A stretch of 64,000 bases of DNA from Alistipes sp. CAG:514 (GCA_000431015.1 HF986083.1:25356-89355), one strand, 5' to 3'; positions 30,861-64,000 are shown, numbered from the stretch's first letter. Notes: generated by a model from the sequence alone, not told the origin. Numbers and translations are program-made.

Positions 30861-30900
30861 CAATTCCCGAATTTTGCACGTTACCAAAATTCGGGAATTG
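30861..30900. repeat. REP-like palindromic element, copy 1: 15-bp stem, 10-nt loop GCACGTTACC
   Basis: cAATTCCCGAATTTT-GCACGTTACC-AAAATTCGGGAATTg; perfect inverted repeat between convergent genes (Omp85-like and rlmD). Confidence 0.7.
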
Positions 30901-39166: not shown

Positions 39167-39201
39167 ATCGTGATATATCGCCAGGTTCGGGCAGCAAAAA
39201 G

Positions 39202-39243
39202 CTGAATTCCAAATTTTGCACGTTACCAAAATTTGAAATTCAG
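39202..39243. repeat. REP-like palindromic element, copy 2 (same loop GCACGTTACC; stem with one mismatch, extendable to ~39197..39248)
   Basis: cTGAATTCCAAATTTT-GCACGTTACC-AAAATTTGAAATTCAg; followed by a T-run. Confidence 0.7.
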
Positions 39244-39369
39244 TTTTTCTGCTGCTTGAAAGTGTTATAGAAAAAAAATATTTATATAGATAACTAATCT
39301 GTTTCAATACTTATAAGACAGCAAAATATACTCCATACCAAATTATTGGGCAGAATATACACAGCGTTC

Positions 39370-39411
39370 AGAAAATAAAAATTCCAAAATTTTGATAACG
39401 TGCAAAATTTT
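39370..39411. repeat. REP-like palindromic element, copy 3, inverted orientation (loop GATAACGTGC = reverse complement of GCACGTTATC)
   Basis: AAAATTCCAAAATTTT-GATAACGTGC-AAAATTTTGGAATTTT; perfect 16-bp stem; 126 bp from copy 2. Confidence 0.7.
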
Positions 39412-39459
39412 GGAATTTTCTATTTTTGAACGCCCTTATCGTTTCGGAAAAAGCGTTAA

Positions 39460-50468: not shown

Positions 50469-50882
50469 TCATCTGTCATTGATGTGGGCCTCGATGGCTT
50501 TGACCAACTTGTCCGGGCAGCGCACAGGGCGTCCGGTAGCCTTGTTGAGAAAGCCCAGGGTGACCTTACCCTCCACGCAGAGCGCGCCGTCCTGATTGTA
50601 GACCGCCTGCCTTACATGGAGCTTGGCCATCGGAACCTCATCTATCATGGCGACAGCGCGTACCACATCACCCATCTTGGCCGGAAGCCTGTAACGACAT
50701 TCTACCGTGACGATCGGTATGGTCACGCCATCCTCCTCACATTTCTCTATAGGGTACCCGCAATCGATCATCAGGGTGTTCCTGGCGCACTCGAAATAAC
50801 GGATGTAGTTCGAGTGGTGGACAATGCCCATCTGGTCGGTTTCATAGTACCTGACAGGGAAAGAAGTCTCGGAATATACCAT
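50469..50882 (-). CDS. Acyl-CoA thioesterase (hotdog fold, YbgC/4HBT family)
   Basis: FPVRYYETDQMGIVHHSNYIRYFE signature; 137 aa. Confidence 0.85.
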   Translation of the reverse strand: MVYSETSFPVRYYETDQMGIVHHSNYIRYFECARNTLMIDCGYPIEKCEEDGVTIPIVTVECRYRLPAKMGDVVRAVAMIDEVPMAKLHVRQAVYNQDGALCVEGKVTLGFLNKATGRPVRCPDKLVKAIEAHINDR

Positions 50883-58540: not shown

Positions 58541-59833
58541 CTACTTTATACGGAGGAAGGAGTAGCCGAAGCGTTCGCAGGCGGCGCGCTCAAGGGATTC
58601 GCGGTCGTCCGGGTGGGCGATGGAGATCAGGGCACGGGCGCGCTCGGCGAGATTCTTGTTGCGGAGATAGACACAACCATATTCAGTCACAACGTATTGC
58701 GTCTGGAATCTGGTGGTGACCACGCCGGCTCCCGGAGCCAGGTTGGCGACAATCTTGCCGCGGCCTTTCCCGGTGCGGGAAGGGAGGGCTATGAATGTCT
58801 TGCCTCCTTCGGACAGGGCGGCTCCGTACATGAAGTCGTGCTGTCCCCCGACGCTGGAGAAGATCTTCTCGCCTATGCTGTCGGCGCAGATCTGACCGGT
58901 AAGGTCAACCTCGATAGCCGAGTTGATGGCCATGGCGTTAGGGTTCTGACGGATCCGTTGCGGGTCATTAGTCCAGCTGACATCGTAGAAGACGGCATCC
59001 TTGTTATGGTCCAGGTACTCATACATGTGGCGGGAGCCGAGAGCCAGACAGGCCACGCTGCGCCCCGGCTCGATCTTCTTCAAGGAGTTGTCGATAACGC
59101 CCGACTGCATAAGGCGGAACACGCCGTCCGTCATCGCCTCGGTGTGGAGACCGAGGTGCTTGTGATCCTTCAGGCCGTTCAGAGTCGCGTTCGGGATGCC
59201 GCCCACACCGATCTGGAGGGTGGCGCCGTCAGGAATCTCGGCGGCGATGTAGGAGCCGATCGCCGACTCGATCTCCGTCGGCGGGCCGAACTGCATGTCC
59301 ACCGGCGGATCGTCACACTCAACAGCGGCGGTGATCTGCGACTCATGGATCATGGCGGTGCCGTAGAGGTACGGAATGCTCTTGTTGACCTGTGCGATCA
59401 CAATCTTGGCGGACTCCACGGCAGGTTGCGCCAGATCCGCGGAAATGTTGTAGCTGCAATAGCCGTTCTCGTCAGGAAGCGAGCAGTTGATGCACGCCAC
59501 ATCGACAGGAATCTCATGACGGCGGATGAGCGACGGGAGTTCGCCCAGAAAACCCGGAATAAGGCTTCCGTAGCCCTGTGCGACATATTCCCGCTGATCC
59601 GCGCAGAGGAAAAGGCTGTTCACGAAGAATGATTCCTTGTACTCCGGCCTGCAGAAAGGAGCGGGACCCTTGGTGATGTTGAATCCGGAGACGATGTTGA
59701 CTCCGCGAAGCTCATCCGCGCGGCGGGCAAGAGCCTCCTGGATGATCACAGGAACAGCGGTGCTGCCCTGAAAGAAGACCCAGTCACCTGACTTTACGAG
59801 TTTTACGGCCTCGTCAGCGCTAACGTATTTCAT
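58541..59833 (-). CDS. Acetyl-CoA hydrolase/transferase family protein (4-hydroxybutyrate/succinyl-CoA:acetate CoA-transferase-like)
   Basis: Family pattern throughout (GxGG, catalytic Glu region). The ATG giving MKYVSADEAVKLVKSGDWVFF is preferred over the 21-codon upstream extension (ORF-track start 59896), which lies inside a hairpin loop. Confidence 0.8.
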   Translation of the reverse strand: MKYVSADEAVKLVKSGDWVFFQGSTAVPVIIQEALARRADELRGVNIVSGFNITKGPAPFCRPEYKESFFVNSLFLCADQREYVAQGYGSLIPGFLGELPSLIRRHEIPVDVACINCSLPDENGYCSYNISADLAQPAVESAKIVIAQVNKSIPYLYGTAMIHESQITAAVECDDPPVDMQFGPPTEIESAIGSYIAAEIPDGATLQIGVGGIPNATLNGLKDHKHLGLHTEAMTDGVFRLMQSGVIDNSLKKIEPGRSVACLALGSRHMYEYLDHNKDAVFYDVSWTNDPQRIRQNPNAMAINSAIEVDLTGQICADSIGEKIFSSVGGQHDFMYGAALSEGGKTFIALPSRTGKGRGKIVANLAPGAGVVTTRFQTQYVVTEYGCVYLRNKNLAERARALISIAHPDDRESLERAACERFGYSFLRIK

Positions 59834-59871
59834 AAAATAATGTTCAATAAATAACTCAACTTTCGCAAGTA

Positions 59872-59921
59872 GGCAATCACCTGCTGTCAAATACATTATC
59901 TCACGTTCGGAGGTGATTGCC
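59872..59921. other. 11-bp inverted repeat (GGCAATCACCT ... AGGTGATTGCC) with a 28-nt loop in the 5' region of the CoA-transferase gene
   Basis: Perfect complementarity; the loop contains the rejected upstream ATG at 59896. Confidence 0.4.
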
Positions 59922-59955
59922 CACCCACATCATTTAACGTTACCCCCTCCCTAAA

Positions 59956-60028
59956 TCCCTCCCCTCGGGGGAGGGACTTGCTTTCACTGCAAGCAGTGAA
60001 GAAGAGTGGTGTTTCGCAAATGCGAAAC
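59956..60028. terminator. Three consecutive short GC-rich hairpins downstream of the aminotransferase stop (candidate terminator/attenuator cluster)
   Basis: TCCCTCCCC-tcg-GGGGAGGGA (59956..59976); TTCACTG-caag-CAGTGAA (59983..60000); GTTTCGC-aaat-GCGAAAC (60011..60028). Confidence 0.4.
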
Positions 60029-60040
60029 TTGAGTAAATAA

Positions 60041-61357
60041 TTAATTACCAAGTTCTTGAAGCTTTACAAACGCTCCAAGCCTCTCATCCATGCCGCGGAA
60101 ATCCTTCTCGGAGTTCAGGAGCGACACGCAGACTCTGATCCCCTCACGGGAACTTCTTGTCGAAACCATGGTGATCGCGCAGACTCCGCAGCGGAGCAGA
60201 TTCAGAAGCAGCTGGCTGCCTGTCATTTCCTTGTAGCCGATCGTGAAGAAGAAGCCGTCGCTCACATCCTCGTCCAGATCCTTTTCATACACAAGGTGGA
60301 AGCCATGACGAAGGAATATCTCCTTGGCCCTTGTAGCCCTGCGGCCATATTCACGCATCTCGCCCACGAAGTCATATTCCCCGTCCGCCGCCGCTCCGAG
60401 CATTTTAGCGAAGGCGTACTGAGCGGAATGTGAGCAACTTGACGAGTTGACATAGATGTATGTCAGAGAGAAGTTGTCGCCAAAGCGGCCTATGCCGTAA
60501 CGCTCGCGAAGGGCGGGATACTCACGATTGAAGAGTTTGTCGGAGATCGCCACCATCGCGATCCTCTCCCCGGCGTAACTGAATATCTTGGATGCGGAGA
60601 TCATCAGCACGCAGTTGTCGGTGTAGCGCGCCACCGTCGGCTGGAACGGAGGCTGGAACGGCACCGAGCGATCCTTCCGGAAATCCATGCAGAGATAGGC
60701 CATGTCCTCAAGGGCGATCACATCATACTTGGTGCAAAGTTCTCCGAGATCCTTGAGTTCCTCCTCCGTCAGGCAGCACCAGGACGGATTGTTAGGATTT
60801 GAATATACTATCGCGGCCACTCGTCTGTCCCCGAACACCTCTTCAAGTTTCTCCCTGAACGCCTTGCCTCTGAAATCATAGAGATCGAACATCCTTGACT
60901 TCACGCCAAGCACCTTGGCCTGGCCATAATGCGACGGGAATCCAGGATTCAGATAGACGACCGTGTCTTTCTCCGGATTTGCCTGGACACTTTCAAGAAG
61001 GAGGTTGTAGCATCCTTGCATGGAGCCTACCGTCGGCACGATCCCTTCCGGGGAAATGTCAACACCGACAAAGGCCTTGATGAAACGGGAGCCGTTTTCC
61101 TTCATCTCCTTGATTCCGCAGGCCGGAGGATAGACAGAGGCCACGCCGTCCTCCAAGGCGCGCATCTGCGCCTCCACGCCGATTCCGCAGGCCTTCAGGC
61201 CAGGGATACCGAACTCCAGATGGACGAACTTTTCGCCGGAGATCCTTTCCAGCTCATGGGACACATTGACGCACTGACGGATTGTCGCGTGACCTATGTC
61301 AGCGATGTCAAGACTCCGGAGAACCTCATCTACAACTTGTCTGGAAACCGGTTTCAT
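60041..61357 (-). CDS. PLP-dependent aminotransferase, class I/II
   Basis: PLP-lysine context ISASKIFSYAGERIA and fold-type I pattern; ATGA overlap with iorB. Confidence 0.75.
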   Translation of the reverse strand: MKPVSRQVVDEVLRSLDIADIGHATIRQCVNVSHELERISGEKFVHLEFGIPGLKACGIGVEAQMRALEDGVASVYPPACGIKEMKENGSRFIKAFVGVDISPEGIVPTVGSMQGCYNLLLESVQANPEKDTVVYLNPGFPSHYGQAKVLGVKSRMFDLYDFRGKAFREKLEEVFGDRRVAAIVYSNPNNPSWCCLTEEELKDLGELCTKYDVIALEDMAYLCMDFRKDRSVPFQPPFQPTVARYTDNCVLMISASKIFSYAGERIAMVAISDKLFNREYPALRERYGIGRFGDNFSLTYIYVNSSSCSHSAQYAFAKMLGAAADGEYDFVGEMREYGRRATRAKEIFLRHGFHLVYEKDLDEDVSDGFFFTIGYKEMTGSQLLLNLLRCGVCAITMVSTRSSREGIRVCVSLLNSEKDFRGMDERLGAFVKLQELGN

Positions 61358-61944
61358 CTCGAGAAGTTCTTGGAGGCCTCAAGGCCGGCATTGAAGGCAG
61401 CGATGTTCATTTCCACCACCGCGTCGCCCTTGCGGGAGAACACGCTGGCGATACCCTCGCGGAGCTTCTCCGGCTCAAGTATCTCCATGACGGCAGCCGA
61501 CGCTCCAAGAAGAGCCATGTTCGAGCTGCGAGGCGATCCCGCCTCCTTGGCTATGGCGTCGCAGTCCAGGGTGATGACGTTGCCGACTTTCCGAAGCTCA
61601 GCGGTGATTTCCTCGACAGGAGGATAGTTCGGAATGTTCACAAACGGTGTGGAGTTGGTCACTATCCAGCCGCCCTTGGAAAGCCACGGCAGGTAGCGGA
61701 GCGCCTCCATCGGCTCCAGGGAGAGGATCAGATCGCACTCCCCTTCCGGAATCAAGTCGCTCCAGATCGTGTCGGTGCTGATGCGCAGATTACTCTGCAC
61801 ATCCCCGCCTCTCTGGCTCATGCCATGCACCTCAGCCTGTTTCAAGTGAAGGTTCTGGTCGAGCGCCGCCCAACCAATCACTGTAGCGATGGAGAGGATC
61901 CCCTGTCCTCCAACGCCTGAAAGTATGATGTCTTTTTTTGCCAT
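61354..61944 (-). CDS. iorB: Indolepyruvate:ferredoxin oxidoreductase subunit beta
   Basis: LSGVGGQGILSIATVIG N-terminus of the 2-oxoacid:ferredoxin oxidoreductase gamma-like family; 196 aa; follows iorA. Confidence 0.85.
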   Translation of the reverse strand: MAKKDIILSGVGGQGILSIATVIGWAALDQNLHLKQAEVHGMSQRGGDVQSNLRISTDTIWSDLIPEGECDLILSLEPMEALRYLPWLSKGGWIVTNSTPFVNIPNYPPVEEITAELRKVGNVITLDCDAIAKEAGSPRSSNMALLGASAAVMEILEPEKLREGIASVFSRKGDAVVEMNIAAFNAGLEASKNFSR

Positions 61945-61962
61945 AACAGTTACTCCTTAAAT

Positions 61963-63585
61963 CTATTTGCGTGCCGCGGCGGCGTGGCGCTTGGCGGTCT
62001 GTATGCACTCGCGGCGGCAGATGATGACCGAAACGCCGCTGTAATTGATCTCCTCGTCGATGACCTTCTCCATGTCCGGATAGTTTTTCGGGAGAGGAAC
62101 AATGGTTCTTATGTGCGCAGGATCGACTCCAAGCCCCTTGCAGATCTCCTCAAGGCGGCCTGTGCCGGCGGAATCCTGCCCTCCGGTCATGCCGGTAGTA
62201 AGGTTGTCGGAAATGCAGATCGTGACGCTCGCCCCAGCATTGACACAATCCAGAAGACCGGTCATACCGCTGTGGGTGAAGGTCGAGTCACCGATTACGG
62301 CGACAGCCGGCCACACGCCTGAGTTGGCGGCCCCGAGCGCCATCGTGACGGAAGCACCCATCTCCACACAGGTCTGGAAGGAGTTGAACGGCGGCATGTA
62401 GCCAAGCGTGTAGCAGCCTATGTCGCTGAACACACGGGCCGAAGGGGCATATTCCTTAAGTACCACATTAAGTGCGGTGTAGAAGTCGCGGTGACCGCAG
62501 CCCTGGCAGAGTGCCGGAGGGCGTGGAACGGTGACCTCTGATTTTGAATATGTCTCCGCAGGCGCAAGCCCGAGAGCCTTGCGTACGCTGTCCGGATTCA
62601 GTTCGCCCGTCCTCGGAAGAGTGCCGTCCAGACGGCCTTTGATGATCCTGGCTCCCTTGGCCTCCGGATCGTAGAGGATGCCGCGGAGACGCTCCTCGAT
62701 CAGCGGCTGGCCTTCCTCCATGACCAGAATGTTGCCGCATGACTCCGCCATCTTCCTGGCGAGAGCCTTAGGGAACGGATAGCGCGTGACCTTGAGGACC
62801 GGATAAGGACATCCGTCCGGATAATTCTCCATCAGATAGTTATAGGCGATGCCGCAGGCAATGACACCCATGCTGTGGTCGGTCCCGTCAACATAGCTGT
62901 TGTCACTTGAGGCAACCGAGTCCTTCTCAAAGCCGATCAGTTCACCGGCCAGTCCGAGAATGCGCTTCCTGGCGTTGACCGGAAGCGTCACCCAATTCTT
63001 CTCGTGAGCCTCGTCAGGGAAGTGAAGCTCGTTCTCCCGGCGGATCTCCCCTGCCTCCACGACAGCCCTGGAGTGCGCCATGCGGGTGGTAAGCCGCATC
63101 AGTACAGGAATATGATTGGCCTCGGAATAGTCAAACGCCTCACGCACCATGTCATAGGCTTCCTGCTGGTTGGACGGCTCAAAGCACGGCATCATTGCAA
63201 AGTCAGCGTAGAATCTGGAATCCTGCTCGTTCTGCGAGGAATGCTGCGACGGATCATCGCAAGCCACGACCACAAGACCTCCGTTCGCTCCGGTCACCGC
63301 GGAATTGACAAAGGCATCGGCGCACACGTTCATCCCGACATGCTTCATGCACACGAGCGCGCGCTTACCTGAATATGAAACGCCAAGCGCCGACTCCATC
63401 GCGGTCTTTTCATTGGAAGACCAGTCGCAATGGATTCCGCGCTCTTTGGTAAGAGGGTGAGCCTGGATGTATTCCGTGATCTCAGTCGAAGGCGTGCCGG
63501 GATAGGCATACACGCCGGAAAGCCCTGCATGCAACGCTCCAAGAGCCAAAGCCTCGTCACCCAAAAGAAGTTTCTTTTCCGACAT
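61963..63585 (-). CDS. iorA: Indolepyruvate:ferredoxin oxidoreductase subunit alpha (TPP-binding, 4Fe-4S)
   Basis: TPP-binding motifs (GDSTFTHSG) and cysteine cluster CQGCGHRD; 540 aa. Confidence 0.85.
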   Translation of the reverse strand: MSEKKLLLGDEALALGALHAGLSGVYAYPGTPSTEITEYIQAHPLTKERGIHCDWSSNEKTAMESALGVSYSGKRALVCMKHVGMNVCADAFVNSAVTGANGGLVVVACDDPSQHSSQNEQDSRFYADFAMMPCFEPSNQQEAYDMVREAFDYSEANHIPVLMRLTTRMAHSRAVVEAGEIRRENELHFPDEAHEKNWVTLPVNARKRILGLAGELIGFEKDSVASSDNSYVDGTDHSMGVIACGIAYNYLMENYPDGCPYPVLKVTRYPFPKALARKMAESCGNILVMEEGQPLIEERLRGILYDPEAKGARIIKGRLDGTLPRTGELNPDSVRKALGLAPAETYSKSEVTVPRPPALCQGCGHRDFYTALNVVLKEYAPSARVFSDIGCYTLGYMPPFNSFQTCVEMGASVTMALGAANSGVWPAVAVIGDSTFTHSGMTGLLDCVNAGASVTICISDNLTTGMTGGQDSAGTGRLEEICKGLGVDPAHIRTIVPLPKNYPDMEKVIDEEINYSGVSVIICRRECIQTAKRHAAAARK

Positions 63586-63810
63586 AACTTATAGCAGTTT
63601 TATAGTTTTTGTGTTATTACGGCTACAAGTTACGAAAATTCTTAAATATTCAAAAATTTCTTTCAGATTTTAACGCATCCCGACCACTTATCCGCAAATC
63701 CTTAAATCCGCCACCCACGCATGGAAGGTGTGCCGGCAACGGACATGGCAAGACAAGCGATTTAGCGTGTCAAACTGGATGAGGTTGAGCATTCAAGCCG
63801 GAAGGATGGC

Positions 63811-64000
63811 GGGGTGGTACTCATTTTCTGCCGGAGAATACTCTTTGAGGGAGTTCCATCGCTATGATTATGCCCAGGACTATCGCGATGGCGGCCTTGA
63901 CGGCGGTGAAGCCGGCTGAGGCGGAGAGGAAGAACTGGCTGGAGACAAGGTAGTAGGTGAACCAGAATATTCCGGCACCGGGGACGAGCGGGAATATTCC
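63811..64000 (-). CDS. Hypothetical integral membrane protein, C-terminal fragment (gene continues beyond window end)
   Basis: Minus-strand frame open to the window edge, ending ...GIIIAMELPQRVFSGRK with a stop near 63811. Hydrophobic helices; no family assigned. Confidence 0.35.

Follow-up and report, generated by a model that had tools for sequence, protein, structure and literature searches.

The region between positions 58541 and 63585 of a 64,000-nucleotide stretch of Alistipes sp. CAG:514 DNA (GCA_000431015.1, HF986083.1:25356-89355; the whole stretch is called the window below) raises the question of what a CoA-transferase gene does behind the genes for an indolepyruvate:ferredoxin oxidoreductase (IOR) and an aminotransferase. 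The minus strand of this region carries four consecutive open reading frames (ORFs), iorA, iorB, an aminotransferase gene (AT), and a CoA-transferase gene (CoAT). The answer that we favor, with a probability of about 0.6, is that these genes form a conserved operon of gut and rumen Bacteroidales for the reversible, three-step interconversion of aryl-acetates and hydrophobic amino acids, most likely aromatic ones, in which CoAT would fill the role of an ADP-forming acyl-CoA synthetase (ACS).

Conservation of the four-gene unit

The genes were assigned from their ORFs together with Pfam and NCBIfam matches for iorA and iorB, Pfam and PDB matches for AT and CoAT. All lie on the minus strand: iorA (61963..63585, 540 aa) encodes the IOR alpha subunit, iorB (61354..61944, 196 aa) the beta subunit, AT (60041..61357, 438 aa) a class I pyridoxal phosphate (PLP)-dependent aminotransferase of the PDB 3G0T subfamily, and CoAT (58541..59832, 430 aa) a family I CoA-transferase of the 4-hydroxybutyrate/butyryl-CoA:acetate subgroup. 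These identities and positions agreed with a sequence-only reading of the region, apart from the start of CoAT, which was corrected. The iorB gene starts 18 bp past iorA, and its stop codon overlaps the AT start codon as ATGA, as that reading had noted.

The CoAT start is almost certainly ATG 59832, which gives a protein beginning with MKYVSADEAV..., and all orthologues begin at the corresponding position. An alternative start at ATG 59896 (ORF 59896..58541, 451 aa) was rejected, because the extension runs into a miniature inverted-repeat transposable element (MITE) that lies between AT and CoAT in this species and borrows 21 codons from it. On contigs of the same species, gene callers give CoAT a length of either 449 or 430 aa, and they disagree because the longer ORF borrows MITE codons. 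The CoAT protein was identical in all six contigs retrieved from this species, and CoAT is therefore still under selection.

We then examined whether the four genes stay together in relatives. An AT alignment was scanned against GTDB with one genome per species, which gave 516 relatives, and the gene content of the best 80 of these 516 loci was determined by tblastn with the four window proteins. The 80 loci, each from a different species-level genome of Bacteroidales, came overwhelmingly from rumen and gut metagenome-assembled genomes (MAGs). All four genes were adjacent on one strand in 62 of the 80 loci, one of which (L070) had the order AT-CoAT-iorA-iorB. Four further loci showed iorAB-AT and reached the contig end before any CoAT, eight showed AT-CoAT without iorAB, and six showed AT alone. 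Thus, CoAT directly followed AT in 70 of 76 loci when the four loci cut by a contig end were excluded. The median gap was 4 bp between iorA and iorB and -4 bp between iorB and AT, with an overlap in 40 of 68 loci, mostly by the same 4 bp as in the window. Between AT and CoAT the median gap was 5 bp; it was 40 bp or less in 67 of 72 loci, and the genes overlapped in 28 of 72.

This four-gene arrangement is far beyond chance. Because CoAT follows AT in almost every complete locus, at a short gap and often with an overlap, it is a member of the operon, and the four genes are one functional, translationally coupled unit, as the sequence-only reading had proposed. Independent transcription of CoAT, which that reading had named as counting against the cassette, is contradicted by the short AT-CoAT gaps and frequent overlaps in the relatives. 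The divergence of the four proteins was tightly correlated across the loci (Spearman rho 0.90-0.92). CoAT was the most conserved of the four, with 71-96% identity among the related loci, compared with 59-87% for AT and 67-92% for iorA. No further neighboring gene was conserved in the flanks of the 80 loci. A protein identical to the window AT was present on many human-gut metagenome contigs, and its relatives carried the labels Rikenellaceae, Bacteroidales, or 'Alistipes sp. CAG:435'.

Two neighbors were seen in part of the sample. In 7-8 of the 80 loci (for example, L058 4904-6952 and L062 10704-12711), genes for phosphate butyryltransferase and butyrate kinase (ptb-buk) lay in convergent orientation just downstream of CoAT. 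These loci belonged to the more distant part of the sample and in several cases were labeled Prevotellaceae or Muribaculaceae, and the pair might be an alternative or extra route for cashing the acyl-CoA or a coincidental adjacency. In one rumen MAG, a distant paralogue of the IorB/OFOR-gamma type (23% identity; OFOR, 2-oxoacid:ferredoxin oxidoreductase) was located on the opposite strand right after CoAT (L080 4314-4829). Upstream of iorA, an intergenic stretch of about 236 bp (63586..63821, minus strand), which follows a ThrE-family gene, presumably serves as promoter region for the four genes. No clean match to the Bacteroidota TAnnTTTG -7 motif was seen by eye upstream of iorA or inside the MITE.

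The enzymes and the direction of the proposed route

IorA combines the Pfam domains POR_N and TPP_enzyme_C in one 540-aa protein, and IorB has the Pfam domain POR. The pair thus shows the two-subunit IorAB architecture, with a fused POR_N/TPP alpha subunit and an OFOR-gamma-like beta subunit. IorB passed the NCBIfam equivalog NF005324 (303.9 bits, cut-off 222). IorA scored 488.7 bits with TIGR03336 (IOR_alpha), for which the cut-off is 650.9, and matched model positions 2-541 of 595; the score lies below the cut-off because the C-terminal Fe-S domain is absent. In agreement with this, no ferredoxin-type CxxCxxCxxxC motif was found in the 540-aa protein. IorA contains the TPP-binding motif GDS at 432, followed by ...SDN, and its cysteines in CQGC at 360-363 and at 391 and 406 are candidate ligands of the proximal [4Fe-4S] cluster. 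Because the two-cluster domain built into archaeal IorA has no counterpart here, electrons must pass from this IOR directly to an external carrier. No IOR structure was found in the PDB.

AT matched Pfam Aminotran_1_2 (PF00155) with E = 4.5e-21. Its best PDB match was 3G0T (E = 1.6e-128), deposited as 'putative aminotransferase', and the next-best structure followed at 1e-14. The PLP residues, SASK at 254-257 (Lys257), NPNNP at 187, and DMAY at 218, were invariant in an alignment of 14 sequences. The NCBIfam equivalogs were missed widely, with a best score of 72 bits against cut-offs of at least 350.

CoAT contains the Pfam domains AcetylCoA_hydro (PF02550) and AcetylCoA_hyd_C (PF13336). Its catalytic Glu lies in HTE at 230-232, which aligned with the HSE/HTE of 3GK7 and 3EH7 (E238 of 3GK7), and it has the QxGhG loop as QIGVG at 207 and GGQxDF as GGQHDF at 329. 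All three elements are features of family I/Cat1 enzymes (PMC11659651). On its domains and intact motifs, CoAT is a bona fide family I CoA-transferase of the Cat1/4-hydroxybutyrate (4HB) subgroup, in line with the earlier assignment, and an aryl specificity is what we propose for it.

The neighborhood of AT outside the window's clade was investigated with the 3G0T sequence as query, and the genomic context of nine matching loci, a small sample, was examined. AT directly followed an ADP-forming ACS of 681-685 aa, with the domains CoA_binding, Succ_CoA_lig, and ATP-grasp_5, in a Porphyromonas gingivalis-like contig, in P. pogonae, and in Balneicella halophila. Three Bacteroidota loci (L211, L213, and L214) had the order ACS-(231-aa protein)-AT, followed by Fer4, alpha, beta, and gamma of a four-subunit OFOR; the 231-aa protein had no Pfam or NCBIfam match. 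In L212, ACS directly preceded AT, and the Fer4-alpha-beta-gamma OFOR followed. A fifth locus of this kind (JGI 3300075153 contig) showed the order ACS-ACT protein (141 aa)-PaaK-like ligase (433 aa)-AT-OFOR, and the PaaK-like protein carried AMP-binding and AMP-binding_C_2, the pair typical of phenylacetate-CoA ligase (PaaK). The OFOR alpha subunit of L211, the locus with DNA available, passed the VorB subfamily model (563 bits versus 399). Only the Ignavibacterium copy of AT, one of the nine, had no such neighbors. Judging from these neighborhoods, AT is a recurrent core of cassettes that join it to an OFOR and an enzyme converting acyl-CoA, and the clusters of the ACS-AT-Fer4-VorB-type OFOR kind look like a separate, uncharacterized operon for amino-acid oxidation. 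In two of the loci, a beta-eliminating lyase of the tryptophanase/tyrosine phenol-lyase family was located near the AT-ACS cluster.

Because AT orthologues in Porphyromonas, Balneicella, and other Bacteroidota adjoin an ADP-forming ACS, the gene order supports the view that in the window's clade CoAT takes the place of this synthetase beside AT. This lends support to the proposal of the sequence-only reading that the usual ADP-forming ligase is dispensed with. The PaaK-like neighbor and IOR itself point to aromatic substrates for AT.

The route would then run as follows. The 3G0T-type AT would convert Phe, Tyr, or Trp with 2-oxoglutarate to the aryl-pyruvate and Glu, and IorAB would convert the aryl-pyruvate and CoA to arylacetyl-CoA, CO2, and reduced ferredoxin or flavodoxin. 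CoAT would finally transfer CoA from arylacetyl-CoA to acetate, the most plausible acceptor, releasing the aryl-acetate (phenylacetate, 4-hydroxyphenylacetate, or indoleacetate) and keeping the thioester energy as acetyl-CoA, from which ATP could be gained by Pta/Ack encoded elsewhere in the genome. The substrates, the CoA acceptor, and the net direction are what we infer, and acetate is a guess from the known partners of the family.

Comparison with known systems suggested which parts of this scheme are new. In the peptide fermentation of Pyrococcus and Thermococcus, an aromatic aminotransferase and IOR are followed by an ADP-forming acyl-CoA synthetase (ACS II). The three-step logic with energy conservation and the IOR family (matches to the IOR_alpha and iorB models) are the same there, whereas in the window the last step falls to a CoA-transferase, IorA has no C-terminal ferredoxin-like domain, and AT lies within one tight operon. 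In Firmicutes, arylacetyl-CoA is cashed either by a phosphate acyltransferase and a kinase or by ADP-forming ligases; examples of the former are HpdDEFG (hydroxyphenylpyruvate:ferredoxin oxidoreductase) with HpdJ (phosphate acyltransferase) and HpdK (acyl kinase), and IOR with an arylacetate kinase in C. difficile (PMC13285125). These sets likewise form arylacetyl-CoA by an OFOR and use dedicated neighbors in reversible steps to cash the thioester for ATP, whereas CoAT would pass CoA to another carboxylate instead of phosphate, and ATP would arise indirectly through acetyl-CoA and Pta/Ack. Bacteroides has iorAB together with an AMP-forming arylacetate-CoA ligase and an ACT protein (PMC13285125), iorAB being BF638R_1606-1605 (PMC11304471). 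This pair, likened here by description, also joins a two-subunit Bacteroidales IOR to an enzyme acting between aryl-acetate and arylacetyl-CoA, but in the window AT and CoAT accompany iorAB instead of the AMP-forming ligase. No AMP-forming ligase of the PaaK type was recognized beside the operon in the 80 loci by a motif search only; the sole PaaK motif match lay 1-2 kb downstream in four related loci, in an AMP-binding protein of 547 aa that was judged to be unrelated.

The AT-linked cassettes described above, ACS(ADP)-AT of Porphyromonas and Balneicella and ACS-(ACT-PaaK)-AT-Fer4-VorB-type OFOR, share with the window an orthologous AT (about 55-62% identity) at the center of the module. They differ in both partners of AT, as a four-subunit OFOR of the VorB type replaces IorAB and the acyl-CoA is converted by an ADP-forming synthetase where the window has CoAT. 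Literature searches gave no description of an IOR-linked CoA-transferase or of a CoA-transferase acting with phenylacetyl-CoA. What is new relative to the known systems is a Cat1/4HB-type CoA-transferase and AT in the iorAB operon, while the logic of the pathway is itself known.

Several observations weigh against the proposed route. IorA falls below the cut-off of its subfamily model, and no characterized member of the AT (3G0T) subfamily was found, also when the literature on 3G0T was searched. Through its pairing with VorB-type OFORs, the amino-acid range of AT could include or favor branched-chain substrates. The nearest characterized relatives of CoAT act on C4 acids (4-hydroxybutyrate and butyrate), and no aryl-acid CoA-transferase of this subgroup was found in literature searches. 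The MITE could also make CoAT expression independent of the rest of the operon in this species. Finally, the Bacteroides IOR that adjoins the AMP-forming ligase has been argued to be biosynthetic (PMC13285125), and measurable indoleacetate was produced by 0 of 66 Bacteroidota isolates (PMC13290082).

The last two points lead to the alternative that survives best, namely that the operon works in the anabolic direction. All three steps, those of AT, IOR, and CoAT, are reversible. CoAT would then activate aryl-acetates with CoA from acetyl-CoA or succinyl-CoA, IorAB would carboxylate the products reductively, and AT would complete a salvage of Phe, Tyr, and Trp. The overwhelming origin of the loci from rumen and gut MAGs fits this proposal, as rumen and colon are rich in aryl-acetates, and so does the PaaK-like activating ligase in one AT-OFOR cluster. 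The Bacteroides IOR with its AMP-forming ligase would be a parallel, since it is perhaps biosynthetic as in methanogens (PMC13285125), and the absence of measurable indoleacetate from the 66 strains fits as well. However, by mass action, a CoA-transferase facing 50-100 mM acetate would be a poor activator of sub-millimolar aryl-acetates, an objection that would carry less weight if the CoA came from succinyl-CoA. Furthermore, the proven anabolic arrangements rely on AMP-forming ligases, and the orthologous AT is mostly paired with an ADP-forming synthetase, which in fermenters works in the direction of acid and ATP. We therefore consider the anabolic direction unlikely but to be taken seriously, above all with succinyl-CoA as donor. 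The catabolic direction is favored, because the high acetate of the gut would pull CoAT toward release of the aryl-acetate and because the positional equivalent of CoAT is an ADP-forming synthetase. Such a direction would be consistent with the part that the Bacteroides IOR takes in the conversion of Phe to phenylacetate (PMC13285125).

A mobile element between AT and CoAT

The sequence-only reading had described a structured spacer between AT and CoAT. Such a spacer exists (60040..59833, 207-208 bp) and its structure is strong, with a fold of -85 kcal/mol (z = -6.7), but it is not a native regulatory spacer. It is an inserted MITE of 181 bp (59854..60034, minus strand) that belongs to a multi-copy family in gut Bacteroidales. 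This follows from its terminal inverted repeats (TIRs), its site-specific duplications, its occurrence at many unrelated positions, and a site left empty in relatives. The TIRs are 14 nt long, ACTCAAGTTTCGCA at 60034-60021 and its complement TGCGAAAGTTGAGT at 59854-59867; they enclose three internal hairpins and a G-run motif, and TTATTTA is present on both flanks. In the sister-species loci L015 and L023, the empty site has a single TATTTA. The gap between AT and CoAT is 207 bp in the window, 276 bp in the conspecific locus L004, and about 20 bp in the sister species.

The core module of the MITE was detected in at least 120 metagenome stretches among the matches listed, most of which had the full 181-bp element with differing flanks. 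At least 27 distinct other insertion sites were found, each with its own duplication of 6-8 bp. The element occurs in length variants of 181, 250-252, 388, and 437 bp, the longer ones containing extra tandem copies of a module, about 70 bp long, from its interior. At the same site, L004 carries the 250-bp type, which shows a length polymorphism within the species. No further copies were found within the 64-kb window; the repeat nature of the element was seen only in the metagenome scan. The reading of the spacer as a riboswitch or other known RNA was rejected, since an Rfam scan of the region gave no family above threshold and only sub-threshold chance hits (RAGATH-16, Plasmid_RNAIII, and TCV_Pr).

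Repetitive extragenic palindromic (REP) sequences and bacterial interspersed mosaic elements (BIMEs) of enterobacteria, Correia elements of Neisseria, and other MITEs are likewise short, non-coding, structured, multi-copy sequences between co-transcribed genes. The present element shares TIRs and a target-site duplication with such elements, but differs in its sequence family, in the absence of an Rfam match, and in its expandable module of about 70 bp. The family is previously unannotated. Its insertion here shows that operon junctions are remodeled by mobile elements in these genomes.

Whether this insertion has split the operon was also considered. In that case, CoAT would be an independent transcription unit in this species, with the MITE terminating or processing the iorAB-AT transcript and supplying a promoter. 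The widened gap compared with the sister species and the very stable RNA structure agree with such a split, as does a -35/-10 pair of sigma-70-like type, extended by TG, which the MITE carries 63 bp ahead of the CoAT start. However, no hairpin with a U-tract was found on the sense strand of the spacer in a terminator scan. The promoter signal was weak, as the scan gave 7 matches where 3.0 +/- 1.8 were expected, and it used an E. coli consensus that is unsuited to Bacteroidota. The selection that still acts on CoAT in this species speaks against the split as well, and in any case the split touches only regulation, not function. We regard it as distinctly unlikely. Since no terminator-like site is present on the sense strand, co-transcription through the MITE is probably intact, while its insertion into a junction of about 20 bp may alter the relative expression of AT and CoAT.

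The central module of the element, AGT-CCCTCCCC-NNN-GGGGAGGG-ATTTAGGGAGGGGG-TAACGT, was also observed outside the 181-bp MITE (L089, L091, L093, L098, L117, L123, L141, and others). These copies lay mostly on apparent rumen-type metagenome contigs, within other GC-rich palindromic arrays, and often adjoined sequences resembling tRNA 3' ends (…GGGACTCGAACCC). In form, the G-run part of the module, GGGAGGGATTTAGGGAGGGGG, corresponds to a G-quadruplex motif competing with the hairpin.

Substrate range and significance

The closest solved structures to CoAT were 3EH7, 9VAG, 2OAS, and 3GK7 (E = 1e-105 to 1e-101), and with 3D3U included the matches extended down to 1e-91. All five were deposited as 4-hydroxybutyrate CoA-transferases. 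Grouping of CoAT with such enzymes, which the sequence-only reading had named as a result that would speak against an arylacetate cassette, was thus found at the family level. CoAT shares the fold family (PF02550 and PF13336), the catalytic Glu, QxGhG, and GGQxDF with AbfT of C. aminobutyricum (3GK7/3QDQ) and with 3EH7 and 3D3U of P. gingivalis, which we take to be butyryl-CoA:acetate CoA-transferases. However, it is only 40-45% identical to the solved 4-hydroxybutyrate enzymes, compared with the 71-96% found within its own operon-linked clade, and its context is amino-acid oxidation, not the conversion of succinate or 4-aminobutyrate to butyrate. The best NCBIfam match, TIGR03948 (butyryl-CoA:acetate), failed with 314.2 bits against a cut-off of 674.8, and NF053666 (also butyryl-CoA:acetate) failed with 93.4 bits against 740. 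No gene of a 4-hydroxybutyrate or butyrate pathway (4-hydroxybutyryl-CoA dehydratase, 4-hydroxybutyrate dehydrogenase, or succinate-semialdehyde reductase) was recognized in the examined flanks of the window and the 80 loci.

IORs act on phenylpyruvate, hydroxyphenylpyruvate, and indolepyruvate, and those characterized prefer aryl-pyruvates (PMC13285125). In B. fragilis, which excretes phenylacetate and isovalerate, the OFORs besides pyruvate:ferredoxin oxidoreductase are two 2-ketoglutarate:ferredoxin oxidoreductases and IorAB, and there is no 2-ketoisovalerate:ferredoxin oxidoreductase (VOR) (PMC11304471). Because isovalerate is made there without VOR, a broader range of hydrophobic substrates is possible for IOR.

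It is very unlikely that CoAT is a common CoA:acetate transferase for short-chain acyl groups (butyryl, 4-hydroxybutyryl, or branched-chain) in a cassette that mainly oxidizes non-aromatic amino acids (Leu, Ile, Val, and Met) to branched- or short-chain fatty acids, or in the extreme case part of a separate butyrate pathway: its solved and NCBIfam relatives, the VorB-type OFORs beside AT orthologues, the isovalerate of B. fragilis, and the ptb-buk pairs fit such a role, but the low identity to those relatives, the wide failure of both equivalogs, examined flanks with no conserved gene and no recognized butyrate gene, the AT/CoAT start-stop overlaps, the preference of IORs for aryl-pyruvates, and the PaaK-like ligase of one AT cluster all speak against it.

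For the arylacetate route, we put forward tentatively, at somewhat less than even odds, that the operon-linked CoAT clade is a dedicated arylacetyl-CoA:acetate (or :succinate) CoA-transferase. It would be a third, undescribed way to finish an oxidative aromatic fermentation, besides ADP-forming synthetases and Pta/Ack-like pairs. If so, it would be the missing terminal enzyme for the release of phenylacetate, 4-hydroxyphenylacetate, and indoleacetate in abundant uncultured Bacteroidales of the gut and rumen.

Phenylacetylglutamine, which has been linked to cardiovascular disease, is derived from phenylacetate; indoleacetate and 4-hydroxyphenylacetate, a precursor of p-cresol, are also active in the host. 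In Bacteroidota, the reaction that frees the acid from arylacetyl-CoA is poorly assigned, and the iorAB-AT-CoAT operon offers a concrete and easily cloned candidate from a widespread uncultured lineage. It also provides a three- or four-gene marker for predicting aryl-acetate turnover from metagenomes. If the route runs in reverse, the operon would instead mark rumen and gut bacteria that scavenge aryl-acetates to make amino acids. For the hydrolysis of phenylacetyl-CoA, a review assumes a thioesterase (PMC10809373).

Two other features of the window were observed. A gene for a 137-aa hotdog-fold thioesterase of the 4HBT family (Pfam) was located beside valS at 50469-50882, about 7.7 kb from the operon; thioesterases of the 4HBT fold include the phenylacetyl-CoA thioesterase PaaI. 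Intergenic palindromes at 30861-30900, 39197-39248, and 39364-39433 had the common core …AATTCC(N)AAATTTTG / CAAAATTT(N)GGAATT…, and these three may represent another small repeat or terminator family.

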